Assembly (NCBI GenBank): GCA_964507055.1
Contig: CAZDOJ010000001.1
Location: forward strand, 13,210 to 77,209
Source of the DNA: an uncultured Gammaproteobacteria bacterium
GTDB taxonomy: Bacteria > Patescibacteriota > Microgenomatia > Levybacterales > UBA12049
DNA: 64,000 bases
Direction: 5' to 3'
Part shown: piece by piece, positions 3,601-62,690 of the stretch
Layout: each line of letters begins with the position of its first letter
Position numbering within the stretch: the first letter of the stretch is position 1
Translations under genes and position numbers: made by a program
The notes under the pieces: generated by a model
Told to the model about the DNA's origin: nothing
Database searches by the model: none
The model's input: the letters and a program-made list of their open reading frames with translations, nothing else

Positions 3601-3603
3601 ATG

Positions 3604-7524: not shown

Positions 7525-7586
7525 TTGATTCTTCTAATAAGCGATGCAGTAACTATCGTGCTAGCTTCAATGTTATAATGTATGAG

Positions 7587-8303: not shown

Positions 8304-8352
8304 ATATTTTCCCACTTGAAACATCGCTTCAAAAAAGGTTATAAATAACACT

Positions 8353-12544: not shown

Positions 12545-12555
12545 AAGAATAACAG

Positions 12556-13407: not shown

Positions 13408-13478
13408 AGAAAAGCTCCTACATCCAGATTACTCTGAAAATTATTGCTCTGTCAAGCGACATTTTTCATGATTAAGGG

Positions 13479-13507
13479 TTGCATCAAGCTCAACTCTCTA
13501 GTATAAT
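13479..13507 (+). promoter_or_regulatory. canonical sigma-70 promoter of rpsB (TTGCAT-17-TATAAT)
   Basis: TTGCAT at 13479-13484, a 17-nt spacer, and TATAAT at 13502-13507. This would give a ~68-nt 5' UTR. The UTR contains the 8-bp inverted repeat CATTCAGC/GCTGAATG (13523-13530 and 13555-13562) and a GAAGGA SD at 13569-13574. Confidence 0.6.
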
Positions 13508-13581
13508 GACAGTTATCTTACACATTCAGCAGATATATCCTGAACCCACATATAGCTGAATGGAAGTTGAAGGATATTATT

Positions 13582-14478: not shown

Positions 14479-14517
14479 TTCTTGATTCTTACTTCATAAT
14501 TCTTTATTCTATAACCT

Positions 14518-14973
14518 ATGGCACAACTAGATTTAAAAGCAATCAAAAAATTACGTGATGAAACATCTGCATCAATTGCAGATTGTCGTCGAGCTCTCGA
14601 AGAAGCAAACGGAGATGAGAAAAAAGCTCTTGAATGGCTAAAGAAGAGAGCCGGTGAAATTGCTGCTAAGAAAGCAGATCGCGAAACTTCACAAGGAATT
14701 ATCGAGGCATATATTCATGGTGGTGGTAAAGTTGGAGTTTTAGTTGACCTTGCATGTGAGACTGATTTCGTTGCAAAAACAGATGAATTCAAAGCTCTCG
14801 CAAAAGAAGTTGCTATGCAGGTTGCAGCTATGGATCCAAAAGATGTGGATGATCTTTTGAAGCAAGCATACATTCGTGATGGTTCACAAACAATCGAATC
14901 CCTCGTTAAAGATGCTATTGGTAAAATCGGAGAAAATATCGCAATTAAAAAATTCGTCCGGTTTGAGATCTAA
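14518..14973 (+). CDS. tsf: elongation factor Ts (short form, 151 aa)
   Basis: N-terminal UBA-like segment IKKLRDETSASIADCRRALEEANGDEKKALEWLKKRA. Also CETDFVAKTDEF. Confidence 0.85.
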   Translation: MAQLDLKAIKKLRDETSASIADCRRALEEANGDEKKALEWLKKRAGEIAAKKADRETSQGIIEAYIHGGGKVGVLVDLACETDFVAKTDEFKALAKEVAMQVAAMDPKDVDDLLKQAYIRDGSQTIESLVKDAIGKIGENIAIKKFVRFEI

Positions 14974-14982
14974 ACCTATTTT

Positions 14983-15534
14983 ATGGATCCAGTCTTAACT
15001 ACAACAAAGCAAAAACTCCAAAAGGTTCTCGATGTGCTTCGAGATGATATCGCAACAATTCGTACTGGTCGTGCAGTCCCTTCATTGGTTGAAAACATTA
15101 CTGTTATGGCATATGGTGGTTCAGCCAAACTCAAAGTTATGGAGCTTGCAACAATCGGAACTCCTGACAATCAAACTATTGTTATCACACCATTTGACGC
15201 ATCAACGATTCACGAAATTCAAAAGGGGATTGAGCAGGCAAATGTGGGCTACAACCCAATCATTGATGGCATGTTACTTCGTATTTCTATCCCACCACTT
15301 TCTTTGGAACGTCGACAAGAACTCATTAAAGCAATGAAAGGAAAACTCGAAAACGGTAAAATTATGGTTCGACAAGTTCGTCACGAAATGATTGAAGATA
15401 TGAAGAAGGATTATGAAGGCCGCGAGGACGATATCAAACGATTAGAAAAAGAAGTACAAAAAGCTGTTGATGAAACTATCGAAACTATTGAAGATTGGGG
15501 CAAACAAAAAGAACAAGAACTTCTCCAAATTTAA
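14983..15534 (+). CDS. frr: ribosome recycling factor
   Basis: 183 aa with LRDDIATIRTGRAVPSLVENI...LSLERRQELIK. Sits in the conserved rpsB-tsf-frr order. Confidence 0.9.
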   Translation: MDPVLTTTKQKLQKVLDVLRDDIATIRTGRAVPSLVENITVMAYGGSAKLKVMELATIGTPDNQTIVITPFDASTIHEIQKGIEQANVGYNPIIDGMLLRISIPPLSLERRQELIKAMKGKLENGKIMVRQVRHEMIEDMKKDYEGREDDIKRLEKEVQKAVDETIETIEDWGKQKEQELLQI

Positions 15535-16838
15535 TCTTCTGTAGGTTCTTTTGCAAACATATCTAAATAAGCAATTGCAGGATCCATGCCTTCTGTTACT
15601 GGTAAAGCTTCAGGTTTCGTTACCCCGAATAGGTTGTTTAGTATATCTTCTATTTTTCCAATAGTAGCTAAGTCTTTAGGTCTTTCCCTCGAAGCATCTA
15701 TACTAACATTGAGCAGCTGACTCAAAGCAAATTGTGCTTTCAGAGCTTCTTCATCAGAACGGCTACTACTTTCTTTAAATTGCTCAAGGTCCTTCATCGC
15801 ATCTTGTACAGTAGCTATTTCCTCACGCCAGGTCTCAAAATAACGTGCTTCCATTAAATGAGTTCCAAAATAGTTTGCTTCATTCTTATTACCTGGAGTG
15901 TCATCTAAACTAAACGTATAATATTTGGTGCCACCTTTTTGAGGCAACTTCTCCCAACTTGCTGATGCACCTCTTGCGTCATTATAACTTGCATAGATGA
16001 ACTCATTTTTAATCTGAATCATTGCGTCATCGTATGAAGTGCCATCTGCCATTACTTCTTCTATCCTTGTACGGAACTTTATATTTGCAGCTCCAACTGC
16101 TTCTTTCTTTTCTTTCCATCCTGGATTGGCATCTGCATATGCGTGCTCTTGTGTTCGCACATCTTCTCCAAAGCGTTCAAATATTTTGGGTAGGTCTTCA
16201 ATGGTTACTTCCTCAGATGTAAATCCATCAAGAATCTTATCAATATTTGGAGCATAGGTATATTCAGGATATGTTTCAAGTGCCTCAAGTTGATCTTCAG
16301 CTTCAGTCTTTTTTACATCTTTAAGAGTTTCATCTCCATCCAACTCTTGTGCCGCTTTCGTTGCTGCTTCAGGATTAAGGAGAGTATCTTTTAAAACAAG
16401 TAATGCTGCTTTATTTGTCTCAGCTATTGCACGTGCCTCTTCATCCTTGGTCTGCATTTGTTGATCAAATCTCGCGATTCGTTGATCCAAGTATGTTTCT
16501 ATTTTGTCTTTGTGAGGTGGGGAAATTTCATGGCCAGCATAGGCATCTAACAAGATTTCTCGTATATCTACCAATCTGCTTTCTTGACGAAGAAACTCCT
16601 TTCTACCAATGACAACATCTTTCTTTTGCTCATCAAGATCTCCAATTTCCGCTTTCACAAGATCGAAAGCATCAATTGCAGTTACTTTATAGCTATCAGT
16701 GAGCTTGGCACTAAAAAGGCCCGCTTGATTATCAAACTTATCCGATCGGAATGATAATCCAGAGTGGTCATATTCCGGGCTTGGTTTTACTTTAGCTTCT
16801 TTTTCGAGAACAATGCGTTCTCCACCAGCTTCACTCAT
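15531..16838 (-). CDS. hypothetical acidic protein
   Basis: 435-aa ORF with no recognisable motif and no island-type tail (ends AKEPTED). Confidence 0.6.
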   Translation of the reverse strand: MSEAGGERIVLEKEAKVKPSPEYDHSGLSFRSDKFDNQAGLFSAKLTDSYKVTAIDAFDLVKAEIGDLDEQKKDVVIGRKEFLRQESRLVDIREILLDAYAGHEISPPHKDKIETYLDQRIARFDQQMQTKDEEARAIAETNKAALLVLKDTLLNPEAATKAAQELDGDETLKDVKKTEAEDQLEALETYPEYTYAPNIDKILDGFTSEEVTIEDLPKIFERFGEDVRTQEHAYADANPGWKEKKEAVGAANIKFRTRIEEVMADGTSYDDAMIQIKNEFIYASYNDARGASASWEKLPQKGGTKYYTFSLDDTPGNKNEANYFGTHLMEARYFETWREEIATVQDAMKDLEQFKESSSRSDEEALKAQFALSQLLNVSIDASRERPKDLATIGKIEDILNNLFGVTKPEALPVTEGMDPAIAYLDMFAKEPTED

Positions 16839-16937
16839 ACAGTCTTATCGTATCGTACTTCAACCATATGAAGCAAGTGAAGAAAGCTAAATAAACCTAT
16901 TGTGTGCAGAGTTTAAAAACCTGCTATAATTATTTCT

Positions 16938-18122
16938 ATGATCATCACTGCTTTGGTTTTCCTCCTCATTCTCTCTGTTCTCGTACTTATTCATGAAGCC
17001 GGTCATTACTTTGTTGCTAAAAAATTAGGGATCAAAGTTGAAGAGTTTGGTTTTGGTTTTCCACTTACTCCAGCTATTTGGCAGAAAAAAATAGGCGAGA
17101 CAGTCTATTCATTTTACCCTGTTTTAATTGGAGGATTCGTCAAGCTTTACGGAGAAGATGATGCTGGAGGTGGACGAATTGCCGCACCAAAGGATGCAAA
17201 AAAAGGAAAAGATCCTGATGCAAAACGTGCGTTTTTCTCCCGTCCATTGTGGCAGAGAACTGCTGTAGTTGTTGCTGGTGTCTTCATGAATGCCGTGCTT
17301 GCAGCGGTTATTTATTATGTCTTTCTTGGTATGTCAGGTTTTAAGACAGAGCTTCCGCTTATTGGTCAGCATACATTCTTCGGAGCAAATCAAACTGTCC
17401 AGACACAAGTTGTTGTCAGTGAAATTTCTAAGGGTTCACCTGCAGAACAAGCTGGTATAAAACCATTCTCACGAGTTGAAAGCATCAACGGCGTACCGAT
17501 GAAAGATTTAAAGACATTTTCATCAACTATAAAAGAGAATACCGGAAAACCACTACAAATTACGTGGATCGAAGACCAAACAGGGAAGTCGTCAACTGCA
17601 ACTGTTACTCCACGTGTAAATCCTCCAAAGGGTGAAGGTGCATTGGGTGTAGCATTTTTCCCAGTTCAGACTGTGACACTTGCATATGAAACACCAACGC
17701 AAAAAGCATTCTCAGGTATTGTCCATCCAGCAAATCTGATGGCATACAACTTCAATGTCCTTGGTCAATTGATTGGAGTTTCTGTTCGCGAGAAGACTGC
17801 TGAGCCAATTAGCCAAGGTGTCTCTGGTCCTGTTGGTATTTATAATGTTGTAGGAACAATTGTGGATTTGCCTGATGCAAAAGAACGATTTTTACAACTA
17901 CTTAATTTAGCAGGTTTGCTCTCGATTTCATTGGCATTCTTTAATGTGCTCCCAATTCCGGGGCTTGATGGAGGAAGATTATTCTTTATCATTCTTGAAG
18001 GTATCATCGGGAAGAAAGTAAATCCAAAAGTCGAAGGATATTTCCATGCTGTCGGTATGGTTCTTTTGATCGGATTGTTGCTTCTGGTTACGATTAAAGA
18101 TATTACGCAATTGTTTAAATAA
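16938..18122 (+). CDS. rseP: RIP metalloprotease RseP (site-2 protease, M50)
   Basis: HEAGHY zinc motif in TM1, a PDZ-like middle region, and NVLPIPGLDGG. TGcTATAAT lies 7 nt upstream of the ATG. Confidence 0.88.
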   Translation: MIITALVFLLILSVLVLIHEAGHYFVAKKLGIKVEEFGFGFPLTPAIWQKKIGETVYSFYPVLIGGFVKLYGEDDAGGGRIAAPKDAKKGKDPDAKRAFFSRPLWQRTAVVVAGVFMNAVLAAVIYYVFLGMSGFKTELPLIGQHTFFGANQTVQTQVVVSEISKGSPAEQAGIKPFSRVESINGVPMKDLKTFSSTIKENTGKPLQITWIEDQTGKSSTATVTPRVNPPKGEGALGVAFFPVQTVTLAYETPTQKAFSGIVHPANLMAYNFNVLGQLIGVSVREKTAEPISQGVSGPVGIYNVVGTIVDLPDAKERFLQLLNLAGLLSISLAFFNVLPIPGLDGGRLFFIILEGIIGKKVNPKVEGYFHAVGMVLLIGLLLLVTIKDITQLFK

Positions 18123-18178
18123 ATCTCCTGGGATCCCCATCAATATTGACTTTGTTTTTCCTATCTGTAAGACTAGAT

Positions 18179-18919
18179 ATGAGGGAATTTATGGTTAATG
18201 AAGAGTTAGTTGCTAATATACGCAATCGATTTCAACAAGGTGAGAGACGAAATGAAATTCGCATGTCTTTGATGGAAGAGGGATGGGAAGAAGCTGATGT
18301 AGATAATGCAATTTCTTTTATTCAAAATGAGGCTTTAAAGCAGCTGCCAGGGATTTCTCATATATATAAATTTATTGATCATCTCGATAGTAAAACTTCA
18401 CATTCGTCACCGAAAGTTATAGCTGCAGTTTTAGCAGGATGTTTCGGAGTTTTGCTCATCATCTTTGGAGGACTTTATTATTTCTTGGATCCTCTAGGTT
18501 TTGGTGGTGTTGAACGAGATAAACAAAGGGAAGCAGATATTGTGAAGATCCGTTCTGCGATTGATAAGTATCAAGTGGATAAGAGTGTTTATCCATCTAC
18601 GCTGCAAGAATTACTGCCAAAATATTTACAAGCAATTCCACAGGATCCAGAGACAGGCGGACAATATAGTTACCAAACAATGGACAATAATTATAACTAT
18701 GAACTTTGTGTGAATTTCGAATCAAAAGCACCTCAATGCGTTTCATCATCGATTGATACCTCAGATATTCCTATGGTGATTGCGACGCCAACTCCAGCAG
18801 CGACAGATACCGTAACTTTGCCCGTAGAACCAGATGCATCTGCACCTGCTGAATTAGAAGAAGCACCAATTGTCACAATTGTCCCTGAAGTAACTGGAGA
18901 GGGAAGTTTGGCATTATGA
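18179..18919 (+). CDS. membrane protein with pilin/GspG-like extracellular domain
   Basis: TM segment VIAAVLAGCFGVLLIIFGGLYYFL, then IRSAIDKYQVDKSVYPSTLQELLPKYLQAIPQDPETG (pseudopilin-like). The start may instead be the track position 18146. Confidence 0.5.
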   Translation: MREFMVNEELVANIRNRFQQGERRNEIRMSLMEEGWEEADVDNAISFIQNEALKQLPGISHIYKFIDHLDSKTSHSSPKVIAAVLAGCFGVLLIIFGGLYYFLDPLGFGGVERDKQREADIVKIRSAIDKYQVDKSVYPSTLQELLPKYLQAIPQDPETGGQYSYQTMDNNYNYELCVNFESKAPQCVSSSIDTSDIPMVIATPTPAATDTVTLPVEPDASAPAELEEAPIVTIVPEVTGEGSLAL

Positions 18920-19677
18920 TTTCGGCCTCGAATATAGCAAAAAAGCATACCCATTTTCATCACATCAATCAGGGAATTACGGTCGCTCAAGTTACAGATA
19001 ACGTCCAAGGAATTGAACTTGCGAAGAAAATTCTTTACGACATAACGGATGCAAAAACAACAGTATATCTTTCTGGTGGGAAAACACCGAAAGCACTATA
19101 TGAACAGCTCGCTCAAGAAGAACAAATAAAACCGGGTGCGGTTGGAATTGTCGATGAACGGTTTGGAAAAAAGTTTCATGGTCACAGCAATGAGAAAATG
19201 ATCAGAGAAACAGGCTTGATGCGTTATTTGGAAATACTAGATATTCCTTTCTATCCCATTCTCCAAAATGAAACCAGTCGCGAAGAAACAGCAAACCTAT
19301 ACGACGAAAAAGTTCGTCATCTGAACGCAACATTTCATCAAAGTATTGCAATTTTAGGAATAGGTGTAGATGGTCATACATCAAGTCTTGCACCAAATAG
19401 AAAAGATTTTAAGAATCCTATGTTTGATCCGATGCAAAGTCATTTACTTGTTTCAGAGTTTAATGATCCAAAAAGTTTTTATGGTGAGCGAGTTGGAATG
19501 ACATTTCTCGGATTGTCGATGATTGATCTCAATCTTGTTTTAGTCTTTGGTGAAGACAAAAAGGAAGCACTTGATGCGTTGTTTGATGAAGGTCCGGAAG
19601 AAGAAATCCCATCGCGTTTTTTTAAACGTCCCGATATAGCAAATAAAACTCTTTTCATTACCGATCAAAAAGTTTAG
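18916..19677 (+). CDS. pgl: 6-phosphogluconolactonase
   Basis: YLSGGKTPKALYEQL and LGIGVDGHTSSLAP are motifs of the 6PGL/NagB family. Lies adjacent to zwf. Confidence 0.8.
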   Translation: MISASNIAKKHTHFHHINQGITVAQVTDNVQGIELAKKILYDITDAKTTVYLSGGKTPKALYEQLAQEEQIKPGAVGIVDERFGKKFHGHSNEKMIRETGLMRYLEILDIPFYPILQNETSREETANLYDEKVRHLNATFHQSIAILGIGVDGHTSSLAPNRKDFKNPMFDPMQSHLLVSEFNDPKSFYGERVGMTFLGLSMIDLNLVLVFGEDKKEALDALFDEGPEEEIPSRFFKRPDIANKTLFITDQKV

Positions 19678-19685
19678 AATAGATA

Positions 19686-21122
19686 ATGATGTCTCCCTTT
19701 GTTTTTGTTATTTTTGGTGCAACAGGCGACCTGGCACAACATAAATTATTACCAGCATTATTCTCTTTATATAAACATGGTCAATTAGGAGAGAAATTTT
19801 ACATCGTTGGTTTTGCACGTCGAGAATTTACTGATGAAGCATATGCACACATGCTTGGTGATGAATTGGAATTTCACAAAGACGAACAGTGGAAAGACTT
19901 TGCAAAGAATATTTATTACCAACAAGGATATTTCGATCAGCCAGAAGGTTATGAGCAATTAATTGAAAAGCTCAATGCGTTTGACACAGAAATTGGTGCC
20001 TGCATTACTCGTGTCTTCTATCTTGCAACGCCACCCGACAATTACGAAAACATCTTATATCATCTTGAATCTACAAAACTTTCAGAAGGTTGTGGTCAAG
20101 GATCTGAAAAATGGACTCGCTTGGCTATAGAGAAACCCTTTGGCAAAGATCTTGATACGGCACGTGCTTTGGATAAGAAGCTTTCAAATATTTTTGAAGA
20201 AAAACAAATTTATCGTGTTGATCATTATCTTGGTAAAGAAACAGTACAAAATATGTTGGCCTTTCGTTTCGCCAACAGTATCTTTGAGCCAGTTTGGAAT
20301 AAACAACATATAGATAATGTGCAAATAACATTTGCTGAAAAGAAAGGAATTGGAACGCGGGGGAAATTCTTTGATGGGGTAGGGATGCTTCGTGACGTTG
20401 CTCAAAATCATTTGCTGCAATTACTTGCGACAGTTGGGATGGAACAGCCAAAAAGTTTCACCAAAGAAAGTGTTCGTGATGAACGTGCAAAAGCTATCAA
20501 GGCAATCCGTCCACTATCAAAAGATGATGTAAAGCAAAATGTCGTTCGTGGACAGTATGAAGGATATAAAAAAGAGAAGGATGTCTCGCCAGCATCACGA
20601 ACAGAAACTTTTGCAGCAATGAAATTGTTCGTTGATACAGAGCGTTTTGCAGACGTTCCATTTTATCTTCGTGCAGGGAAAGAGATTGAACAAAACCTTG
20701 TCGAGATAAAAGTCGTTTTCAAACAAACATGTCATATCTTATTTAAAGAATATGGTTGTCCTGAAACCGGTAATGTCCTCACGATTCGGATCCAACCAGA
20801 TGAAGGAATTAATCTTCAGGTGATGGCAAAAAATCCTGGAACTGAGTTATCGTTGAGTACTGTTGATATGCATTTTTCTTATCATCAAACTTTTGGCCAT
20901 CATGGTGCAGATGCATACGAAAAGATTATGCTCGATATTTTGAAGGGAGACCAAATACTCTTTAATCGATCCGATGAGCTGGATTATTCGTGGTCACTTA
21001 TTTCTCAAATATTAAAAGGTTGGGAAAGTGATGATGATGAGATCTCTCAATACGAAAAAGGGAAATGGGGGCCTCAAGAAGTTTTTGATCTCATTGAAAA
21101 AGACGGGCGAAAATGGTTGTAA
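19686..21122 (+). CDS. zwf: glucose-6-phosphate 1-dehydrogenase
   Basis: FGATGDLAQHKLLPAL, EKPFGKDL and RVDHYLGKE. Confidence 0.92.
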   Translation: MMSPFVFVIFGATGDLAQHKLLPALFSLYKHGQLGEKFYIVGFARREFTDEAYAHMLGDELEFHKDEQWKDFAKNIYYQQGYFDQPEGYEQLIEKLNAFDTEIGACITRVFYLATPPDNYENILYHLESTKLSEGCGQGSEKWTRLAIEKPFGKDLDTARALDKKLSNIFEEKQIYRVDHYLGKETVQNMLAFRFANSIFEPVWNKQHIDNVQITFAEKKGIGTRGKFFDGVGMLRDVAQNHLLQLLATVGMEQPKSFTKESVRDERAKAIKAIRPLSKDDVKQNVVRGQYEGYKKEKDVSPASRTETFAAMKLFVDTERFADVPFYLRAGKEIEQNLVEIKVVFKQTCHILFKEYGCPETGNVLTIRIQPDEGINLQVMAKNPGTELSLSTVDMHFSYHQTFGHHGADAYEKIMLDILKGDQILFNRSDELDYSWSLISQILKGWESDDDEISQYEKGKWGPQEVFDLIEKDGRKWL

Positions 21123-21167
21123 GCAATTGGTATTTATTCTCAAGTGTGGTATAACTAATAAGTAATT

Positions 21168-22151
21168 ATGCAAGTAGCGATTTTAGGATTAGGGAAAATG
21201 GGTCGTAATATTACGGAAAAACTCATGAAAGATGGACATCATGTTGTAGTCTGGAATCGTTCAAGAGCTGTTCTTGATGAGATGCGTCAGTCAGAAACAG
21301 ACTACGTAGTGAGTGGCCAATTGATGCTTGCACATACTCTCGAAGAACTTCGTGATATGCTGCAAAAACCCCGAATTATATGGAGTATGCTTCCTGCAGG
21401 TGAACCTACTGAAAGTGTTATGGCACAACTTCTTGAAAGTGTCGTGGAACAAGGTGATGTTGTCATTGATGGGGGAAATGCTTTCTACAAAGATACTGAA
21501 AGAAGAGCACAGCAGTTTCAGCAGAAATCAGTCAAGTATCTTGGCATTGGTGTTTCAGGTGGCGTTATCGGTTTGAATAATGGGTATCCACTTATGGTTG
21601 GCGGTGATCAAACAGGATATGAATATATAACTCCAGTACTCGACAGTCTCGCAAAACCAAATGGTGGACATACCTACTTTGGTCCAGGTGGTGCAGGACA
21701 TTTCGTGAAGATGGTTCACAATGGTATTGAGTACGGCATGATGCAAGCGATCGCTGAAGGATTTGGAGTTCTTGCCAAAAGTGAGTACAAGCCCGACTTG
21801 GTAAAAGTTGGAAATACTTGGCAAAAGGGAAGTATCGTTTCTAGTTTTCTTGTCTGGATGGCTGAAAATGCAATTAGTAAAGATCCAAATCTTAGCCAAT
21901 TCGATGGCTATATTGAAGCAACAGGCGAAGGGAAATGGACAAGCGAGATTGCTAAAGAAATGAAAGTCCCAACACCAGTTCTGGATGCGGCAATTGATTT
22001 TCGTAATCGTTCACAGTTTGACAAAGGCGTGCAAGAGACATATGTTGCAAAACTCGTTGCTGCACTTCGACATGAATTTGGTGGACATGATGTCCACAAA
22101 GATGATCCCCTCGCAGATGGATCAGGAACACCTCCTACACAAACTTCATAA
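21168..22151 (+). CDS. gnd: 6-phosphogluconate dehydrogenase (decarboxylating, short form)
   Basis: MQVAILGLGKMGRNI NAD(P) fold, GGAGHFVKMVHNGIEYGMMQ. Confidence 0.85.
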   Translation: MQVAILGLGKMGRNITEKLMKDGHHVVVWNRSRAVLDEMRQSETDYVVSGQLMLAHTLEELRDMLQKPRIIWSMLPAGEPTESVMAQLLESVVEQGDVVIDGGNAFYKDTERRAQQFQQKSVKYLGIGVSGGVIGLNNGYPLMVGGDQTGYEYITPVLDSLAKPNGGHTYFGPGGAGHFVKMVHNGIEYGMMQAIAEGFGVLAKSEYKPDLVKVGNTWQKGSIVSSFLVWMAENAISKDPNLSQFDGYIEATGEGKWTSEIAKEMKVPTPVLDAAIDFRNRSQFDKGVQETYVAKLVAALRHEFGGHDVHKDDPLADGSGTPPTQTS

Positions 22152-44514: not shown

Positions 44515-44550
44515 CCTGTAATAGTTAAATAGTATATTTTTTGTTATAAT
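44515..44550 (+). promoter_or_regulatory. island junction promoter: CCTGTAATAG-N20-TATAAT (T15)
   Basis: Box at 44515-44524 and TGtTATAAT at 44542-44550. ATG follows 6 nt later. Confidence 0.55.
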
Positions 44551-44556: not shown

Positions 44557-46401
44557 ATGGTAGAACAATCAAGAAGAATTGCACCACAGGGAAGTCGTAC
44601 TTTTCGTGGTACAGATGTGTCCGCAATGCATGCAGAAATGCAAGGTATCCTTACGGCTTCGAGAGATAATGATCCGCATGCCTCCACAATAGACTCATAT
44701 AGAAAGATTGCTGATGCACTTCCTCTACGGGTTCCAGCTGCTACATACCAAGCCGTTAGTGAATCTATCAATAATCCTGATCCCGTGATTTCAAAAGCTG
44801 GGAAGGAAGTTTTTACTTGGCTAAATATAAAGACTGTAATTTCAGTTGCAGAAAGATATTCGGGAGAAGGTTTGGGAGATGTTGAAGATTTCGCTCAGGA
44901 AGGGGTTACTATCCTTTATGAAAATGTAGACACAATTCATCAGAGGGCAGATAGTTCTATGTATACTTATCGTTTGGCTGAAGAGGCTCTGACTAATAGT
45001 ATTGCTCGTGAGCATGGATTTAGTGTTACTATGAGCGAAAATAGAGTTGCATTACCTATTGGTCAGACCGTGACTGAATTATTTGATAATGCTCCCTTAG
45101 GGGTTGATGAAGTAGGGCTTGAAAGGCAAGCAGTAGTATTAGCACAGAAATTTGGAATTACTGAAGATGCTGCATTTAAATATCTCTCAAGGAGGAGTGC
45201 ATTGCAGCCAATTCACGAAAGTAAGATGCAGCCAGAACGTGAGGATACAGAGGTAATAGAAGATATTATGGTTTTAGATGAGCTTCTGAGGATGCTTCCT
45301 GAAAGGAATGAACAAATGCTGCGGATGAGATTTGGGAATGGTTTTACACTAGATGAAATTGCCCAACGCTACAACCTGGTTCCTGAACGTGCTCGTCAAA
45401 TAATTGCTAAAACAATTAAATCATTACAGCATGAGCAAGTTATCGATTTTGTTACAGGGGGAGTTAAACCCGCATCTCGAAGTCAGCGAATAATGACATC
45501 AGATGGAGAAGAGGGGCAGGATATTGAAGATGTCATCCGCGAAAAGCGTTTGGCTGGATATGGTGAATCTGGATCAGGTTCGTGGGCTGAATCTAGAAAG
45601 GAATTGGCTAATATTGCACATGCATTCTTAGCTGAGCCGCAAATTGGGTATCCGGAAATTGCAAATAGGCTTGGAATTACAGTAGATAAAGTAATTTATA
45701 GTGTACAAACTCTTCGTTCAAAATATTTGTTACCAGATGCTAATGCAGGTAAGCATGCAAAAATAACTCCCGATGATGGCAACAGAACATTGCAGGAAAG
45801 ACTACATTCACGATATGAAAGACAAGAATCCGAGATTGTAGTTCCGCCAATTCAGGGGGAAAGAGAAACAAGTACTATCCCAGCAATTGAGGACACTTCT
45901 TCTAAATCGAAACCACCATCAGAAAGAACACTTCGTGCTTTAATTTTGCAAAAACAAGCGTGGAAGTTACAGCAAGAAGACGGAAAAACGTACGATGAGA
46001 TTTCTGAAATACTCAATGTTAGTCTAGGATCCATACGAAGATATCTTCAAAACGAACGGCGAGACCTTGGTCTTGCAAATCAGACGAATGTCGGACGTCC
46101 TAAAGATCCTGAGGTGCAAGCTAGAAGAGCCGTTTTGGCTGAGAGAATTAAAGCTGGTGAGCCTCTTAGAGTTCATGGATTTGCTAAAGAGTTTGGTACT
46201 ACTGTAGGTACTATAAATTTTGATATACGTGAAATTTTGAGTGGATATCATACTTCTTCATCAGAGACAACAATATTTTCTCAAGAAGAACATGCTTCGC
46301 AACAGCCTAAACTTGAGGAGCCAGAGGTTACGATCGCTGATGTAGCTGTCGATTGGGATGGTACCGATGATCCTGAAGCAGGTCCTCAACGAACTTTATA
46401 A
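44557..46401 (+). CDS. tail-family protein T15: sigma-70-family N-terminal half + extra HTH modules
   Basis: Region 2-like NIKTVISVAERYSGEGLGDVEDFAQEGVTILYENVDT. Region 4.2-like LPERNEQMLRMRFGNGFTLDEIAQRYNLVPERARQIIAKTIKSL. Further HTH-like segments are present. C-terminus VAVDWDGTDDPEAGPQRTL. Confidence 0.8.
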   Translation: MVEQSRRIAPQGSRTFRGTDVSAMHAEMQGILTASRDNDPHASTIDSYRKIADALPLRVPAATYQAVSESINNPDPVISKAGKEVFTWLNIKTVISVAERYSGEGLGDVEDFAQEGVTILYENVDTIHQRADSSMYTYRLAEEALTNSIAREHGFSVTMSENRVALPIGQTVTELFDNAPLGVDEVGLERQAVVLAQKFGITEDAAFKYLSRRSALQPIHESKMQPEREDTEVIEDIMVLDELLRMLPERNEQMLRMRFGNGFTLDEIAQRYNLVPERARQIIAKTIKSLQHEQVIDFVTGGVKPASRSQRIMTSDGEEGQDIEDVIREKRLAGYGESGSGSWAESRKELANIAHAFLAEPQIGYPEIANRLGITVDKVIYSVQTLRSKYLLPDANAGKHAKITPDDGNRTLQERLHSRYERQESEIVVPPIQGERETSTIPAIEDTSSKSKPPSERTLRALILQKQAWKLQQEDGKTYDEISEILNVSLGSIRRYLQNERRDLGLANQTNVGRPKDPEVQARRAVLAERIKAGEPLRVHGFAKEFGTTVGTINFDIREILSGYHTSSSETTIFSQEEHASQQPKLEEPEVTIADVAVDWDGTDDPEAGPQRTL

Positions 46402-53534: not shown

Positions 53535-53570
53535 CCTGTAGTAGAATTTTGAGCCTAAATTTGGTATAAT
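53535..53570 (+). promoter_or_regulatory. island junction promoter: CCTGTAGTAG-N20-TATAAT (T19)
   Basis: Box at 53535-53544 and TGgTATAAT at 53562-53570. ATG follows 6 nt later. Confidence 0.55.
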
Positions 53571-56078: not shown

Positions 56079-57275
56079 ATGACTGAGACACGAAAACCAA
56101 GAGAACCCTTCAAATTGAGTAAGCCAGTGAACCCAGCATACAGAGCAGCTTCAAAAAGATGGTCAGACCATCCAACGGCTGTAGACTTCACCAATTATGC
56201 TGACTACCACTGGGTTGAGAAATTTAATGAACATTCCAGAGCTGGAAATAAAATTGCAGCATTAGGATGGTTGCTGGCAGGACAAACCCGAAAGTCATTT
56301 ATGACCCGATATGATATCGTAGGTCGAAATGAAGTTGCTCCTCGGATGAGTGATGCTCAAAAGCAGACAATCAGTCGTTTTGAAACAGTCCAAAAAGTAA
56401 CAAATATCATAAAACGTGCACTTGAAGATAGTGAGACAAAAAAGCGTAGACCAAAGGAGCCACTTAGACATAGAATTGCTCGGTATAAGGATGTTTTTGA
56501 TTCAGCGAGAGCAAAAAGAAGAGAGAGAATCGATAATGGAGGAGGACTTTTTAATACGGCATTTTCTACATTTGTTCCAGATAAAGGAATTGAAAATGCA
56601 TATAAGAGTAAAGTAGCACGGCAATATGGACCATCTGATGAGGAGTCTGCTCAACAAGGGGTGGCTGAAAAAGAACCTAAAAACACTTTTGATATAGGTC
56701 ACGGATTGACCGTAGACTTTGATCAAGCTCGAGATGCTGGACTTGATGCCGTAGAAGGTAGATTGGGGCCGATAACTGGAAATGAGACTAACCAGGAACT
56801 AAATGCTCGAAAAGCAATCGCTGCAGAAGCAAGAAAAAAGGATATTCAAGGCCAATTAGATAAACAGCGTGCAGATTTTGATGCTGGACGTGAAAGTCAG
56901 GGGCTTGATCCAGTAGATCATGCAGGAGAACCAGATGCTGATGCTGCAATAGCAAAATACCTCGAAGCAAAAAAGACAACGTCGGAGACTCCGCAAGCTT
57001 CTGTACCGGATATGAAGGGTGTAAAAATAACAATGCCAGGATTTCTCAAAAGAGATCCTGATCGAAATAAAACCTTTGAGGAACGTACACTTGCAGAAGT
57101 TGCTAAACGTGTTGCAGAAGCCGAAGCTGCGAAACAGGCTTCAGTTTCCCAAAATCGAAATGGTATGCCTGAGTTATCAGATGATCAAAATGTGCCGCTA
57201 TCGACTCTGGATGAAAGTGTACAATGGGATGGCTCTGACAGTCCACGTGGGGTCGATGGGCCAAAGATGCGATAA
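56079..57275 (+). CDS. tail-family protein T20 (basic/acidic, degenerate tail)
   Basis: C-terminus ESVQWDGSDSPRGVDGPKMR. The W-x-G, acidic and GP-K elements are kept, but the terminal [ST]-L is missing. TATAAT lies 21 nt before the ATG. Confidence 0.8.
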   Translation: MTETRKPREPFKLSKPVNPAYRAASKRWSDHPTAVDFTNYADYHWVEKFNEHSRAGNKIAALGWLLAGQTRKSFMTRYDIVGRNEVAPRMSDAQKQTISRFETVQKVTNIIKRALEDSETKKRRPKEPLRHRIARYKDVFDSARAKRRERIDNGGGLFNTAFSTFVPDKGIENAYKSKVARQYGPSDEESAQQGVAEKEPKNTFDIGHGLTVDFDQARDAGLDAVEGRLGPITGNETNQELNARKAIAAEARKKDIQGQLDKQRADFDAGRESQGLDPVDHAGEPDADAAIAKYLEAKKTTSETPQASVPDMKGVKITMPGFLKRDPDRNKTFEERTLAEVAKRVAEAEAAKQASVSQNRNGMPELSDDQNVPLSTLDESVQWDGSDSPRGVDGPKMR

Positions 57276-57279: not shown

Positions 57280-58797
57280 TTAAAGTGTTTTCGGTAGATC
57301 TTGATCAGGTTCATCTTCTCCAGCAAAATCAACTGCATCGGTAGGTATTCCATGCTCTGACGCAAAGAATATAGGCATAGCAGCTTTCGTTATCTGAATT
57401 TGTTCTGGTTTTTCTGTAACCTTTGGTTTTGGAGTAATTTCGTCTATCATACCTAATTTTTCTGCTTCATCGCGAAGAGATGGTGCACCTAATGCTTGTG
57501 TGATCGCTGATGAAGACGTATCAATTACTTCTTCAGGCTCTCCAGAAGCTCGAATTTGCTCAACAGGAATACCTCCAATTTCAGTAATTTCATGTGCATA
57601 GCGTAATGTCCCATCAAGATTTTCAATAATTGCAGGTTGTGTCTCTACTTGAGTTTCGGGCTTTAGGCGGATTCTTTTATATTCGTATTGTTTTATCTTT
57701 TTAGGCCTTAGTCGTCCTTTGAGATATCGCTTGATGCGTCCTTCTTCGCCTGCTTCTTGATCTTCAGCTCTGGCTATCTCAGCAACTTCTTTTGTTCCAT
57801 CGTTCAGTGGTCGCCCTGCTATAATTCCTTGTGTCGAAGGTGGTGTAAATCCATTTTCTGTATAGAGCTGCTTCATTCTCGCCGCGTATGTTTTGTCTAC
57901 TTCTTCAGCCTGGCCGTAATCTCCTTGCAAATCAAAACCGAGCATTCTACGAAACTCATCACGTCTCCGTTCAACAATATTTGAAAGATTATCATCTAAT
58001 TCGATGGATGGATTTCCGCCTTTTATCGTTTCGCCTAGTTCAGGGATTTGGGCCATCCATGCATCATGAGCTCTTGCTGCTTCAGGGTGAAAGAGACGAT
58101 TATATCCATTCCATGGAGCAGCTTCGATAGCTGCAACCCATTTTTGGATTATTGCACGACGCTCCATGTATTCAGTGCGAAGTCGGTCACGATCTGCGAT
58201 CTCTTCAGCACTTGAACCAAGCGGATCCCATGGAATAAATGCGACAGTACCTGTAGCTCTGGATTTTCCATTTTTTCTTGGACCAAATAACACACCTCGC
58301 TGATGATCGGGATTTGCAACCGGACATCGACAGGAATAGGTACATACTTTTACTTCACTCTTGGGAATTATTTTATCAGGGGAGATATATACTTTTGCTT
58401 CATCAGTTAGTTCATCAAGGAGCTCTGTTGCAATACTGAGGGAGTCTGTTATCCCGGCTGCCATATCTTGCTCAGTTAATAAGTCCTTGGCTTCAAGTAC
58501 TGCCTGTTTGCCGAGGCGAAGTTCATGCCTTGTCGGTTCTGTTGAAGTTTCAGTGGCCGTTTTTTCTATATCCGTAGGGGAAATACCATGCAGCATTGCA
58601 GCAGTTACAAGTCCATCAGTTGCGAGTCTTCTTGCATCTGGATCATCAATCTGTTGAGCACTAACTAACGCAAAAGAAATAGGAAGCACATATCTATCTG
58701 CAAGTTCTCTCTCAGATTGAGCTGTCCGCTCTCGTGAAGCAGCTGGAATTCCATCCGGATGTGGATGTCTTGGTCGGAATCTATCAGGAGTGTTCAT
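57280..58797 (-). CDS. tail-family protein T21, operonic with the coupling ATPase
   Basis: The ATG lies 1 nt after the stop of 58799-62551. C-terminus DAVDFAGEDEPDQDLPKTL. No relaxase-type motifs noticed. Confidence 0.85.
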   Translation of the reverse strand: MNTPDRFRPRHPHPDGIPAASRERTAQSERELADRYVLPISFALVSAQQIDDPDARRLATDGLVTAAMLHGISPTDIEKTATETSTEPTRHELRLGKQAVLEAKDLLTEQDMAAGITDSLSIATELLDELTDEAKVYISPDKIIPKSEVKVCTYSCRCPVANPDHQRGVLFGPRKNGKSRATGTVAFIPWDPLGSSAEEIADRDRLRTEYMERRAIIQKWVAAIEAAPWNGYNRLFHPEAARAHDAWMAQIPELGETIKGGNPSIELDDNLSNIVERRRDEFRRMLGFDLQGDYGQAEEVDKTYAARMKQLYTENGFTPPSTQGIIAGRPLNDGTKEVAEIARAEDQEAGEEGRIKRYLKGRLRPKKIKQYEYKRIRLKPETQVETQPAIIENLDGTLRYAHEITEIGGIPVEQIRASGEPEEVIDTSSSAITQALGAPSLRDEAEKLGMIDEITPKPKVTEKPEQIQITKAAMPIFFASEHGIPTDAVDFAGEDEPDQDLPKTL

Positions 58798-58798: not shown

Positions 58799-61700
58799 CT
58801 ACTTACCTAACTTTGGTGGCCCATCGTCTTTGCCTTTTTCATTTTTCTTTTCCATTTCATTGTAAAGTTCAACTTCTTGCTCCATAGTAAGTGGTGCATC
58901 TAATTCAGGACGAGGTTTTGGTTCAATTGCTGTTGTTTGTCCTCCAAGTACTTGTTTATCCGTTGGTGTGATATTTTGCGTTGGCTTAACTGTCTCTCCT
59001 TCAATAACAAATGAATCAGGTCTTCTTGCTAGTTCTCCACGTGGTTTTGGTCCAAGTCTTGGCCGTAGTGCTTCTATCTGTTTTGCAGTGACCAACTCAA
59101 CAAAGATTGGTCTACCATTTTTAAGTGCTACAATTCCTGTAAAGTCAGGCAATCTTGTAATATCTTCAGGTCTGACGATTGGTTCCCGTACGTCCTCATC
59201 AGTTTTTGTTGTTACAGTGATTTCTGGAATTCTTTGGCTTGGGTTCGTCGTCCTACTTATCTCTCCGCCTTTTCCTCGAGTAGTCGTTGTGCTGCGAGGC
59301 GTTCTATGTGCTGGAGTTGTTGCTTTACTTTCTTTTGTTACGGTACGAGTATGTTGTCCGAAATATGCACTAAATTCGTCAACAGTGGCTTTGTCATCAA
59401 GATTTGGGAGGAGTAATCTACCACCATGACTGTTACTTCTTACTGTAACATATCCATCTTGGGTCCAAATTCTTCGAGCCTGTCCACCATCTTGTATTGC
59501 CCCGAGATATTGCTGCCATCTCTTTCGAGAAAGTGCTAAGAATTGATCGTAGTTACGAATTGGTGCAATATGAGGCAATTCGTCCAGAGCTCCAAGCATT
59601 CGTGGTCCCATAGGTAATCCTTCGACACCGCGTCTTTCTGAATTTTCACCATGTGCTCTAAAATGTGTCATAAGATGTGCAAGGAAGAGCCCTCGGTATC
59701 GTTCTTGATCTGATTCGTGAGCCATCATATAAAGTGATGGACGATTTTCAAAGGTATCATCACTATACATAGTATTGGGATCAATTTCATGTACTTTCGT
59801 TGCATCTTGCACTTTTGGATCTGTCCAAGGTTCAAGTGCTTGGCGTGCCATTGTAATAGCTGATCGTGCGTTTTCTGCACCCGTTCGTAAACCTTCTTTT
59901 AAGTCGAGAAGTGCATTCCATGCCTGGACTGAATCTGATCGGAGTGCCAGACCTTCTCTAATTTTTTCTTGGTCACCGTAAGCTGCACCCTCAGCAATTA
60001 TTCTTCGTGCTTCACCTTCCTGCCATACACAGAATCCAGCAAGTTTTGGTAGGGGACTAAGTTGTCCTTTGATTGTAAAGCGTTGAGCGGCTTCAAGAAC
60101 GTGACCCATATGTCGGGGAGATTCCATATTATATCGTCCGTTGATATACAGTAATGGAGTCATCAACATACGTGCTTGACTATGCCAATAGTCCATATTG
60201 GAGTCGCTATCATTACCTTTGCTTATTCCACTGATAAGTTCGTTTGCAATTTTCATTGACTCAGACCATGTCCGTGTATGTTCAAGTGGATTCCATCGAT
60301 GGGTGCCTTCTCCTGAAGTATCAAGCGGATCCCATCTGTATACATCTCCATGAGAACGAGCCCAACCTTCAGTTTTTTTCCAGATTTCACTTCCAACAGC
60401 TGTTGATATCACCAGACCTCGTCTTGCGAGAATATTTGGAACAATGATTGATTCTGATTTACCTTGTCCTGTTGGTCCAACAACAAGTCCATGTCCACCT
60501 TCTCCTCCAGCAATGAGTCTTCCGCTACTTCGTCCCCAGATGATCCTGTCTCCGAGTTTATCTATGTTTCTGCTTGCGAAATAATCTTGTCTAGACATTT
60601 CTCTTCGTGTAGGCCAACCATATTCTGGATCTCCACGTCGACTTCTGCGACGCATTGCACGTGTATCATCGATCATCTGTTGGACGACAAAATCAACCCC
60701 ATCTCTCATTGCTCTCATAATTTCTGACTGGCTTCTGAATTCTGTTTGTTCAGTTATTCTTGTAGGACCATCGATATCTGGCATTCGTTCAGGGCGGGGA
60801 ATAACTCGTGTTCTTAGATGTTGAGGTTCTCTTCTTGTTGGGTTTGTTGAGGCTTCAGTAACCACTGGCTTTGCGTTGTCAGGGTGAGCTGGTTCTTTAC
60901 CCGTAGCGGGGACCACCAATACACCATTAACAAATTTCAGTTTTTCTGTTTGCTCCTCAACGGGAATATTTGGTGTACCGTCGAGTGGGATCGTACCTCG
61001 AATTTTGTCGGGAGTTAATGTGCTGAGGTCTTCTCCTGCAGGTACAATAATAAGATTCCCTTCATGAACAACAAGTCGTGCATTTGGGATTGAGCGTCGT
61101 TCTGTCCAGTGTACTTCGACTGTCTCAGCTTTTTCTCCACCGGACCAAAGGCGAATAGTTGTGTGCTCATTAACTTTTGTTTCAAAATACGTACCTTCCT
61201 CAGTTGACCTCTTTATTGCATTCTCACTGATTTCTCTCCATTTTTCATTGTAATCCTTCACAACTTGAGTAGCTGGTGCTTCCATCCGTGATCCTACTTT
61301 TTGCAATTCTTTTTGTACATCAGCAGCGAAAAGATCTAGATCTGGAAGTTCCTCTATATTTGGTAAACTAGGATCTTGATTTACTTTTGTTACTGTGCCT
61401 TGTAAGTCTTTCGTGGTGGAATTTTGTGTAAGCCTAATACCAAACTCAAGCGTTTCCCATTCTTTTTGTGTGAGGGGTCCTGATTTTTCTTTTAATCGTT
61501 CGGTTAAACCTGTGAGATCTGTTTCTATATGAGCAAGTATCGTAAATGCTGCATTTTGTCTTTGCACCTGGGTTCTGATTTCCTCTGGAATCGCTTCTAC
61601 CGGAAGATCTGATAATCGTTCAATAAGTTGATAATCAATATATTTAATGAGGACATTTCCCAATACTTTCTTTTCTGTTTCGGTTAGAGATTTTAGATCT

Positions 61701-62551
61701 CGTTGCATTTCATCTTCTGGAAGTGCAATTTCATCAGCAGTAGTTTCTTCAGCACCAGAAGGGTATGAAGGTGGTATCTTTCTATCTTCGACGGGAGCAC
61801 CTTCGGCTGAAACAGTTTGTTTCTGTGTTCCAGTTGTTTGTTCTTCTGAGCCGACTTTTTCAGTAACAGGAGCTTCTGTTGTCGAAATATCTTCTGTGCG
61901 GATTGTAGTTTGCAGGCCTGTATCTATCGTTGCTTGCTGATCTGTATCATCCGTAGATTCTCTACTACTGGAACCTGTTTGATGATCACTTCCTGTAGTA
62001 TCCTGCTCTGTGTCTGAACGATCATTCCCATGTGCATCGTCCTGACTAGATGTATCTTGTCTATCTGTCTGTTGGCTGTCTTCATTCGCTGTTTCTTGTT
62101 GTTCGGTTCTGACCTGATTTCTTTCAGTTTCTATTTGTGGTTGCTGAGGAACTTCATCACGAATAAAGGCTTGTTGTGTAAGAATACCTGCTCGTATATT
62201 AGATATTGGGTCTCGATCTCGTCCTAAGTAATTCTCATTTAAATTGGTCTGTAATTCTCCCGGGTTAGTTTGTGCAATGTCATACAGAGCAGATCCAATT
62301 TGATCAACTGTTTCTATTTCTGGGTTTCCAGTTAGTGTCCGAGCAATGTCTACATATGCAGCTTTAAGTGGAGCTTCTGCTCGTATAATTTGTTCTGCTG
62401 AGGGCCTATCTTTTCCGATAGATTTTGTGGCTTGTCTGCGAATATCTCCCAATACGAAAGAATTAATCCGTGCAATCCCAGCAGTTCTTGGATCAACTGC
62501 TTGATCTTTATGTTCATCTCCTGGTCTGCCAATTGGCCTTTCTGCTGCCAT
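58799..62551 (-). CDS. VirD4/TraG-family type IV coupling protein-like ATPase with ~690-aa N-terminal extension
   Basis: Walker A: GHGLVVGPTGQGKSESIIVPNIL (coding 60455-60478). Walker B region: LGALDELPHIAPI. GAIQDGGQ is also present. These match the TraG/VirD4 pattern. No hydrophobic TM segment is evident. Confidence 0.8.
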   Translation of the reverse strand: MAAERPIGRPGDEHKDQAVDPRTAGIARINSFVLGDIRRQATKSIGKDRPSAEQIIRAEAPLKAAYVDIARTLTGNPEIETVDQIGSALYDIAQTNPGELQTNLNENYLGRDRDPISNIRAGILTQQAFIRDEVPQQPQIETERNQVRTEQQETANEDSQQTDRQDTSSQDDAHGNDRSDTEQDTTGSDHQTGSSSRESTDDTDQQATIDTGLQTTIRTEDISTTEAPVTEKVGSEEQTTGTQKQTVSAEGAPVEDRKIPPSYPSGAEETTADEIALPEDEMQRDLKSLTETEKKVLGNVLIKYIDYQLIERLSDLPVEAIPEEIRTQVQRQNAAFTILAHIETDLTGLTERLKEKSGPLTQKEWETLEFGIRLTQNSTTKDLQGTVTKVNQDPSLPNIEELPDLDLFAADVQKELQKVGSRMEAPATQVVKDYNEKWREISENAIKRSTEEGTYFETKVNEHTTIRLWSGGEKAETVEVHWTERRSIPNARLVVHEGNLIIVPAGEDLSTLTPDKIRGTIPLDGTPNIPVEEQTEKLKFVNGVLVVPATGKEPAHPDNAKPVVTEASTNPTRREPQHLRTRVIPRPERMPDIDGPTRITEQTEFRSQSEIMRAMRDGVDFVVQQMIDDTRAMRRRSRRGDPEYGWPTRREMSRQDYFASRNIDKLGDRIIWGRSSGRLIAGGEGGHGLVVGPTGQGKSESIIVPNILARRGLVISTAVGSEIWKKTEGWARSHGDVYRWDPLDTSGEGTHRWNPLEHTRTWSESMKIANELISGISKGNDSDSNMDYWHSQARMLMTPLLYINGRYNMESPRHMGHVLEAAQRFTIKGQLSPLPKLAGFCVWQEGEARRIIAEGAAYGDQEKIREGLALRSDSVQAWNALLDLKEGLRTGAENARSAITMARQALEPWTDPKVQDATKVHEIDPNTMYSDDTFENRPSLYMMAHESDQERYRGLFLAHLMTHFRAHGENSERRGVEGLPMGPRMLGALDELPHIAPIRNYDQFLALSRKRWQQYLGAIQDGGQARRIWTQDGYVTVRSNSHGGRLLLPNLDDKATVDEFSAYFGQHTRTVTKESKATTPAHRTPRSTTTTRGKGGEISRTTNPSQRIPEITVTTKTDEDVREPIVRPEDITRLPDFTGIVALKNGRPIFVELVTAKQIEALRPRLGPKPRGELARRPDSFVIEGETVKPTQNITPTDKQVLGGQTTAIEPKPRPELDAPLTMEQEVELYNEMEKKNEKGKDDGPPKLGK

Positions 62552-62654: not shown

Positions 62655-62690
62655 CCTGTAGTAGTATTTTTACCAGTTTTTTGATAAAAT
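62655..62690 (+). promoter_or_regulatory. island junction promoter: CCTGTAGTAG-N20-TAAAAT (T23)
   Basis: Box at 62655-62664 and TGaTAAAAT at 62682-62690. ATG follows 7 nt later. Confidence 0.5.

Follow-up and report, generated by a model that had tools for sequence, protein, structure and literature searches.

A sigma-70-type protein with the shared tail of a coupling-protein-linked gene array in a Saccharibacterium, tentatively read as cargo for a bacterial host

The stretch of DNA analysed here, called the window below and 64,000 nt long, carries an island of genes whose products end in a common tail, and one of them, the open reading frame (ORF) at 44557 to 46401 on the + strand, encodes a sigma-70-like protein of 614 amino acids (aa) with extra helix-turn-helix (HTH) modules ahead of that tail. 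Its N-terminal half is a complete sigma-70-type unit with regions 1.2/2, 3 and 4 (domains sigma-2, sigma-3 and sigma-4), and the array also holds a gene for a VirD4/TraG-type coupling protein (type IV coupling protein, T4CP) of the kind associated with type IV secretion systems (T4SSs). Tentatively, and with slightly less than even confidence, we read the sigma-like protein as cargo that would be recruited by this T4CP, exported to a bacterial host and act there on the host’s RNA polymerase. A sequence-only reading of this DNA had offered two explanations, a translocated sigma or DNA-binding effector on the one hand and the island’s own sigma factor, reading the conserved boxes at its gene junctions, on the other. 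The former is the better fit because a VirD4-type gene lies inside the tail array and the lineage is epibiotic with bacterial hosts, with translocation as its conjectural part.

A complete sigma-70-type unit

The presence of sigma regions in the N-terminal half had been noticed from the sequence alone, which turned out to be an understatement, as profile hits, an AlphaFold2 model, Foldseek matches and phmmer colinearity together show that this half is a whole sigma. The HMMER search for sigma domains that had been proposed gave matches above cut-off for the NCBIfam sigma-70 family model TIGR02937 over aa 92-292 (85.5 bits versus 42.9) and Pfam Sigma70_r4 over aa 244-292 (59.2 bits versus a gathering score of 24.1). 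Pfam Sigma70_r2 scored slightly under its gathering score at aa 92-152 (21.2 versus 24 bits), and Sigma70_r3 had no match at aa 165-216, where the sigma-3 assignment comes from alignment and fold alone. The AlphaFold2 model, made from an input alignment of 35 family sequences, has a predicted local distance difference test score (pLDDT) above 90 at about aa 20-220 and 240-300; confidence is low through most of the C-terminal half, and the final 80 residues are disordered. All 37 Foldseek matches in the PDB at E<=1e-3 are sigmaA, sigma70, sigmaS or sigmaB chains from holoenzyme structures with around 250 to 360 aligned columns each, and in a phmmer search of the PDB aa 37-293 ran colinear with RpoD from region 1.2 through region 4.2, with an HTH of region 3.1 type among the aligned parts.

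Along the protein (all parts on the + strand), region 1.2-like helices and the sigma-2 domain occupy aa 20-160 (44614 to 45036; pLDDT >90 and the phmmer alignment with RpoD), with regions 2.1 and 2.2 conserved and regions 2.3 and 2.4 divergent. They are followed by a sigma-3-like domain at aa 165-216 (45049 to 45204), whose HTH aligns with RpoD region 3.1, and by the sigma-4 domain at aa 229-301 (45241 to 45459; pLDDT >90), whose region 4.2 recognition helix PERARQIIAK is RpoD-like. Three further HTH modules had been proposed for the C-terminal half, and these fared unevenly. The one around EISEILNVSLGSIRRYL (aa 467-503) is confirmed as an HTH by the Pfam profiles Sigma70_r4_2, whose match of 58.5 bits has its best stretch there, and HTH_24; it is the core of a second sigma-4-like module at aa 456-510 (45922 to 46086) with helices at pLDDT 50-69. 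Upstream of it, the helical module at aa 343-390 (45583 to 45726; pLDDT 56-76), in which the HTH signature is weak (EIANRLGITVDKV), is colinear with LAHDLGISSRKV of P0026, a relative introduced below, and contains EIANRLGITVDKVIYSV (aa 363-379), which gives weak Pfam matches (E about 2e-3 to 7e-3) on modelled helices of moderate pLDDT. The proposed third module at aa 518-561 (46108 to 46239) aligns with IADELGYPPSAIKYDL of P0026 and stays unconfirmed, as its signature FAKEFGTTVGTINFDI (aa 541-556) has no profile match and a pLDDT below 50 in the model. The protein closes with a disordered acidic tail, …PEVTIADVAVDWDGTDDPEAGPQRTL (aa 583-614; 46303 to 46398; pLDDT <50; net charge -6 over the final 25 aa), and its sequence ends …VDWDGTDDPEAGPQRTL.

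Several known identities were considered for this protein and rejected. Membership in the RpoD/SigA proteins (group 1) was dropped at 47.3 and 46.9 bits against equivalog cut-offs of 354 (RpoD_Cterm) and 555 (PRK05658), and so was MzaA, the MZA anti-phage sigma-70 protein, at 56.9 bits against a cut-off of 800 with a match over region 4 only; the PADLOC model of MzaA likewise reached 38.5 bits over region 4 only. Scans with PADLOC and PHROGs pointed to neither a defence system nor a phage. By these profile scores, the protein belongs to the sigma-70 superfamily but is neither RpoD, nor a sigma factor of the extracytoplasmic function (ECF) group, nor MzaA. It resembles RpoD/SigA in its colinear regions 1.2, 2.1-2.2, 3.1 and 4.1-4.2 and in the residues kept in regions 2.2 and 4.2, but it is only ~28% identical, has the tryptophan pair and other -10 determinants replaced, adds a 310-aa C-terminal half with HTH modules and tail, and belongs to a separate divergent family.

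The residues that would contact a promoter tell two different stories (numbers are those of E. coli RpoD, in which we take the determinants to be Y430, W433, W434, Q437, T440, H455 and E458). In RpoD, extended -10 promoters are read by regions 2.3, 2.4 and 3.0, and of the seven determinants only Y430 and T440 are kept in the sigma-like protein, with W433 replaced by R, W434 by L, R436 by E, Q437 by E, H455 by T and E458 by a gap. The same loss in regions 2.3, 2.4 and 3.0 runs through 54 aligned members of the divergent family. Region 4.2 retains the RpoD code for -35 elements (E585, R586, R588 and Q589), and the core-binding region 2.2 retains D403, Q406, E407, G408 and L412. With the -10 readers of regions 2.3, 2.4 and 3.0 replaced, the protein looks poorly suited to the promoters of the island.

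Promoters and boxes of the island

The sigma-like gene is preceded by an extended -10 promoter, TGTTATAAT (44542 to 44550, + strand), whose TATAAT ends 6 nt before the ATG, so that a leaderless mRNA is predicted. Most array genes have TGnTATAAT 6-9 nt upstream of their start codon, and no Shine-Dalgarno sequence was found before these genes. More generally, 17 of the 22 island genes and 9 of the 24 housekeeping genes have a TANNNT hexamer 4-9 nt ahead of their start, over a background of 10%. No -35 hexamers accompany the island promoters, and a recognisable -35 was counted in 7 promoters versus 20.5 expected from shuffled sequence. Since the same layout precedes the housekeeping genes rseP (TGCTATAAT-7-ATG), glyA (TGCTATATT-6-ATG) and proS (TGCTATACT-6-ATG), we take the TGnTATAAT boxes to be the ordinary extended -10 promoters of this organism, with leaderless mRNAs predicted for most operon-first genes. 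A canonical RpoD with FSTYATWWIRQ and VHMVET is encoded in a related genome of Saccharibacteria type (L059). Because the boxes are ordinary promoters and because of this canonical RpoD in a relative, transcription of the island would not need the sigma-like protein. As an observation of its own, the extended -10 layout in the form TGnTAnnnT occurs genome-wide, i.e., along 24938-57275 of the window and at housekeeping genes (e.g., 10206, 16938 and 22831), again with no Shine-Dalgarno sequence and in most cases no -35 hexamer.

The second junction motif, CCyGTArTAG, had also been correctly spotted. It has four exact copies (36303-36312, 44515-44524, 53535-53544 and 62655-62664), all on the + strand and intergenic within the island, and 13 matches at no more than one mismatch versus 5.2 expected. 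The copy before the sigma-like gene, CCTGTAATAG (44515 to 44524, + strand), stands 17 nt ahead of the TG in the extended -10 and, like the three others, falls in the -33 to -42 region of a promoter, here the gene’s own; exactly this distance to the TG of an extended -10 (TGnTAYAAT) is found at three of the four copies. All four copies lie shortly after the stop codon of the preceding gene.

Such a site would suit a resident regulator, i.e., an alternative sigma or transcription factor of the island that acts inside the Saccharibacterium, for example through CCYGTARTAG, and whose tail would have another purpose, for instance to couple its activity or abundance to the ATPase in a manner comparable to FlgM export and flagellar gene expression. 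The complete sigma fold and the RpoD-like region 4.2 agree with this idea, as do the position of the box in the protein’s own promoter and the recurrent 17-nt spacing. Nonetheless we consider it unlikely. A sigma factor of the island’s own is disfavoured because the TGnTATAAT boxes are a general promoter type and the protein has lost the residues with which RpoD reads and melts the -10 element, and further because a canonical RpoD exists in a related genome and the closest homologues carry the different tail of their own array. Most island promoters, moreover, have no CCYGTARTAG and are indistinguishable from housekeeping promoters, and the motif is absent from the two homologous arrays L006 and L007 described below.

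The shared tail, its coupling protein and related arrays

The canonical tail on the sigma-like protein, already recognised from the sequence alone, is amply borne out. Its consensus [IV]DW.G..D.(D).GP.[RK][ST]L, followed by the stop codon, ends 21 ORFs of the window and 5 more beyond it on the public contig, and a loose form of the pattern has 18 matches in six-frame translation, of which 16 are directly followed by a stop codon. The bulk of these genes form a co-directional array of 20 at 24938 to 57275 (+ strand), mostly with an extended -10 each. Downstream, a tail-bearing gene on the - strand (57280 to 58797; 505 aa; …AVDFAGEDEPDQDLPKTL) lies directly downstream of, and overlaps, the T4CP gene (58799 to 62551, - strand; 1250 aa) with which it shares an operon. 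On the far side of the T4CP gene, the array continues with a gene that runs off the window (62698 to 64000, + strand) and five more tail genes on the public contig. Among the array members, ORF 56079-57275 has a degenerate tail without the terminal [ST]L (…VQWDGSDSPRGVDGPKMR, i.e., …DGPKMR). The small gene at 33347-33679, which lies below the 150-aa ORF cut-off, encodes a miniature tail protein of 110 aa that starts MVES… and ends …FDGSNDGQSGPRRSL.

Apart from the tail, the array proteins are mostly unrelated to each other. They fall into one expanded paralogue family with at least seven members, two large HTH proteins that group together (48738 and 50811) and some smaller groups, and the expanded family models as a ChaN/EreA/TIKI-type fold as in the translocated effectors HopBA1 and RRSP. 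No hydrophobic or membrane segment and no signal peptide was found in the array proteins, which are therefore predicted to be soluble. The tail alignment covers 25 proteins, so the tail is common to at least 25 soluble neighbours, with a net charge of -1 to -8. At its final position all six Leu codons are in use, and the last 30 nt have a mean identity between genes of 52%; from this synonymous-codon diversity and low nucleotide identity, the tail peptide is under selection and the DNA was not copied recently. Three other readings of the tail were dropped: an encapsulin-type cargo peptide (no shell gene is present), a sortase/CTERM signal (no membrane segment follows the motif) and a type VII “WxG” substrate (the ATPase is of TraG/VirD4 type, and W.G lies in a disordered tail and not in a helical hairpin).

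The coupling protein itself matches Pfam T4SS-DNA_transf (PF02534; 101.8 bits), TraG-D_C (PF12696; 39 bits) and TrwB_AAD_bind (PF10412; 35 bits), and all matches to NCBIfam VirD4-like models stay under their equivalog cut-offs. Ahead of the ATPase part it has a hydrophilic N-terminal extension of ~640 aa. The T4CP’s own C-terminus (58799-58840; …KGKDDGPPKLGK, i.e., …KDDGPPKLGK) resembles a degenerate tail.

Relatives of the sigma-like protein were sought with HMMER among 1.84 billion representative proteins, which uncovered the divergent sigma family aligned over aa 15-295, with Pfam detecting region 4 alone in most members. Word-indexed searches with the sigma protein, the full T4CP or its ATPase domain returned nearly only the query itself or generic RpoD and VirD4 proteins; scans of genome, metagenome and viral contig collections with the sigma alignment found nothing, and a plasmid search returned RpoD genes only. 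None of the three tail types described here occurs in 80 loci around proS in other genomes, most of them of Saccharibacteria type. One family member, P0027, is short, has no tail and lies among the housekeeping genes of another genome; such members indicate that the family can provide resident sigma factors, a further point in favour of a regulator that stays inside the cell. Many others (P0028, P0030, P0032, P0035, P0043, P0049, P0050 and more) are fused to an N-terminal ResIII/DEAD/Helicase_C (SNF2-like) helicase and combine a degenerate region 2.3/2.4 with an RpoD-like region 4.2; this set of helicase-sigma fusions is large and apparently undescribed.

The two closest relatives, P0026 and P0033, have the architecture of the window protein, and both are encoded within arrays. 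P0026 (670 aa; 105 bits) is colinear with the window protein over its whole length and lies on L006, a contig of 44.5 kb, where a T4CP-like gene of 1879 aa diverges from an array of at least 14 genes; 13 of these 14 share the tail F.RYG[IV]…PE[IV][DE]E at their very end, and the 14th has a variant of it. P0033 (553 aa) lies on the 6.3-kb scaffold L007, where at least four array genes including its own carry a third tail type, [DE]F.YD… with an acidic end. Homologous cargo across the three loci comprises the sigma-like protein, the adjoining HTH protein, the paralogue family and the opposite-strand gene beside the window’s T4CP (57280-58797), whose product matches L6_18734 of L006 on the same relative strand. 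Within a system the tail is uniform, and it differs from one system to the next, as would be expected if a signal co-evolves with its cognate receptor; the fact that the tail has changed in step with all neighbours in three systems is at odds with a resident regulator.

L006 furthermore encodes four additional sigma-70 proteins (7570-9018, 16042-17190, 17251-18732 and 20343-22013), all above the TIGR02937 cut-off. Two of them are SigB/F/G-like, one is ECF-like and one is RpoD/RpoS-like and keeps “MQWIRNS”; the three complete ones carry the L006 tail, and the fourth runs off the locus. Judging from these sequences, tail-tagged sigma proteins are a recurrent component of such arrays. Five tail-tagged sigma-family proteins of different groups in L006 would be excessive for the regulation of one island, and their number could mean that sigma delivery is a general strategy of these arrays and not a one-off.

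In a close relative of the organism (L009, OZ246394.1; 94% identity of prolyl-tRNA synthetase, ProRS), synteny with the window stops exactly at 24941, where a different island begins. This island (12128-21170) contains a homologue of the 997-aa window protein encoded at 29136-32129 (34% identity over 811 aa) that has no C-terminal tail and instead carries 56 extra N-terminal residues with PRPRVRSLP. The N-terminal motif P.R.[RK]V[RV][SA]L recurs in three neighbours of this homologue; among these is a sigma factor of the ECF group (Pfam r2 49.7 bits, r4_2 30.8 bits) that is extended by 120 aa at its N-terminus. For a P-loop (GAGKT) protein beside them, no relation to the T4CP, a known family or a solved structure was found. 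On the basis of four proteins, the L009 island could represent a fourth version in which the tag sits at the opposite end of the protein.

Proposed export to a bacterial host

A ProRS scan assigns the window to the Saccharibacteria (TM7), as the top 80 matches are mostly metagenome-assembled genomes of Saccharibacteria/Saccharimonadia, with several records labelled otherwise; on this marker, the organism is a Saccharibacterium and thus belongs to an epibiotic lineage with bacterial hosts. Cultivated Saccharibacteria are obligate epibionts of other bacteria, and their T4SS, whose substrates are unknown, is essential for growth on the host (PMC10633639, PMC12857230). In Patescibacteria, the genes for T4CPs are usually found at a distance from virB4, and the reason why this group has thousands of coupling-protein genes that stand alone has remained an open question (PMC12102498).

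Against this background, the tentative reading of the sigma-like protein as exported cargo can be laid out step by step. The gene would be transcribed by the epibiont’s ordinary RpoD from its standard extended -10 promoter into a leaderless mRNA. The tail would serve as a recognition signal that docks each array protein on its cognate coupling ATPase, which in turn would pass the tailed proteins to a type IV secretion apparatus and thereby into the bacterial host of the epibiont. Inside the host, the surfaces of region 2.2 and region 4 would bind core RNA polymerase in competition with the host’s sigma factors, and region 4.2 together with the extra HTH modules would hold the enzyme on DNA at -35-like and other sites. 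Since the residues for -10 reading and melting are replaced, we propose that the polymerase would be either redirected to non-canonical promoters or sequestered. A broader version of this proposal, which we regard as possible but doubtful, would have Saccharibacteria inject into their bacterial hosts not only entire sigma factors but also HTH regulators and ChaN/TIKI-fold enzymes through a T4CP that reads a system-specific tail, with host transcription reprogrammed or shut down at the step of holoenzyme formation.

Several observations weigh against export. Neither the 64-kb window nor the 8.5 kb beyond it contains T4SS channel genes (VirB4, VirB6 or VirB8), and within the window the T4CP is the sole T4SS component. 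No membrane anchor is predicted for the T4CP, which is atypical (maximum 19-residue Kyte-Doolittle value of 1.34, with no segment reaching 1.6); because the window holds no channel and the T4CP is anchorless, export is a step that we infer. The tail peptides matched no sorting-signal or other curated signal model in NCBIfam, the acidic tail being unlike any of them. The linkage of tail and T4CP was seen directly in two loci only, and in L006 the T4CP assignment comes from faint precomputed Pfam hits, with the 279 N-terminal residues that were read being hydrophilic. As to the step at the polymerase, we infer core binding from conserved residues alone. The CCYGTARTAG copies before the sigma-like gene and three other genes could be an island-internal regulatory site. 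Finally, the T4CP homologue of Southlakia epibionticum was reported to be non-essential, and exaptation has been proposed (PMC12102498).

Some of these points would be accommodated if the tail were not an export signal but a tag for intracellular docking or turnover. The anchorless TraG-like ATPase would then be a cytoplasmic hub, unfoldase or assembly platform, and all tailed proteins would act inside the Saccharibacterium. This alternative, which strikes us as improbable, draws on the hydrophilic N-terminal extension of 640 aa and the lack of a membrane segment, on the absence of channel genes nearby, on the tail-like C-terminus of the T4CP itself and on the exaptation of Patescibacteria T4CPs raised in the literature (PMC12102498). 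The cargo, however, is diverse and fast-evolving with expanded paralogues and effector-like folds, as is typical of host-directed arsenals. Moreover, ATPases of the VirD4/TraG family serve secretion and conjugation machines as substrate receptors, and some that lack an anchor rely on partner proteins for recruitment. We know of no precedent for a VirD4/TraG-type hub in such a docking role.

It is also conceivable, though in our view very improbable, that a conjugative-type element ships the tailed proteins along with its DNA into recipient Saccharibacteria, where the sigma and HTH proteins would start expression and establishment. The nearest sequence relatives of the T4CP do indeed lie in conjugative elements with TrwC relaxases and not in tail arrays, conjugative T4SSs are known to translocate proteins (PMC11288057), and the relative with 94% ProRS identity lacks this island and has a different one at the corresponding site. 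Yet no relaxase, integrase or replication gene was found in or beside the array, the GC content of the island is in line with the rest of the window, and Patescibacteria T4SSs have been reported without relaxases (PMC12102498, PMC10633639).

Returning to export as cargo, the island’s mode of working would be closest to that of the effector sets in T4CP-dependent secretion, though we do not claim membership because the T4CP lacks an anchor and both translocation and a channel are conjectural. Agrobacterium VirE2 and VirF, the Dot/Icm E-block of Legionella, XVIPCD of Xanthomonas and BID of Bartonella are C-terminal T4SS signals, or proteins bearing them, that are recognised by the coupling protein. 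Like these substrates, the array proteins combine an unstructured C-terminal candidate signal on unrelated soluble proteins with a VirD4-type linkage, and the tail is acidic like the E-block. The array motif, in contrast, is far more sharply conserved, with [IV]DW.G..DPD.GP.R[ST]L at the very end; the array belongs to a monoderm Patescibacterium whose target would be a bacterium, its T4CP is anchorless, and its tail matches no curated model.

With respect to its proposed effect, the sigma-like protein would resemble phage sigma factors and appropriators in capturing a host’s core enzyme. T4 gp55, SPO1 gp28/gp34 and T4 AsiA/MotA redirect or block host RNA polymerase, but these are expressed from phage DNA within the host, whereas the window protein would itself need delivery; their sequence relation is limited to the sigma-70 superfamily (PHROG sigma matches of 40-55 bits). 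Nucleomodulins are a second point of comparison, as the TAL effectors of Xanthomonas are translocated proteins that reprogram transcription. The likeness to these and to Anaplasma AnkA (PMC4319465) lies in a secreted protein that reprograms the transcription of its target; nucleomodulins, however, act on eukaryotic nuclei and are not sigma factors, whereas the window protein would act on bacterial RNA polymerase. The closest match in lineage are the published descriptions of Patescibacteria T4SSs with T4CPs away from virB4, no relaxases, an essential role in epibiotic growth and possible export of proteins, which differ in that they name no substrates, shared tails or sigma cargo (PMC12102498, PMC10633639, PMC12857230). 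In the literature that we searched, we likewise came across no account of arrays with shared tails, of candidate substrates linked to a T4CP or of sigma cargo in Patescibacteria.

What the locus offers is a T4CP gene amid about 26 tail-sharing proteins and hence a concrete list of candidate substrates together with a candidate secretion signal, with three system-specific tail variants that would amount to a natural experiment in the co-evolution of a secretion signal and its receptor. If the proposal is true, this would be, to the best of our knowledge, the first delivery of a sigma factor from one bacterium to another and would suggest a mechanism for host take-over by ultrasmall parasites; to our knowledge, take-over of RNA polymerase by a foreign sigma has so far been known only from phages.

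As for the surroundings, the island is flanked by housekeeping genes (rpsB, a short tsf, frr, rseP, zwf, gnd and proS), and Rfam and tRNA scans of the window came back empty. Upstream of the island, two stretches on the - strand (582-4812 and 11594-13407) encode putative surface proteins. Three of these have N-terminal hydrophobic segments, one of them with a VWA domain and two with dockerin-like C-termini, and in a fourth a Hint/intein-like segment precedes a Gly/Ser-rich end.

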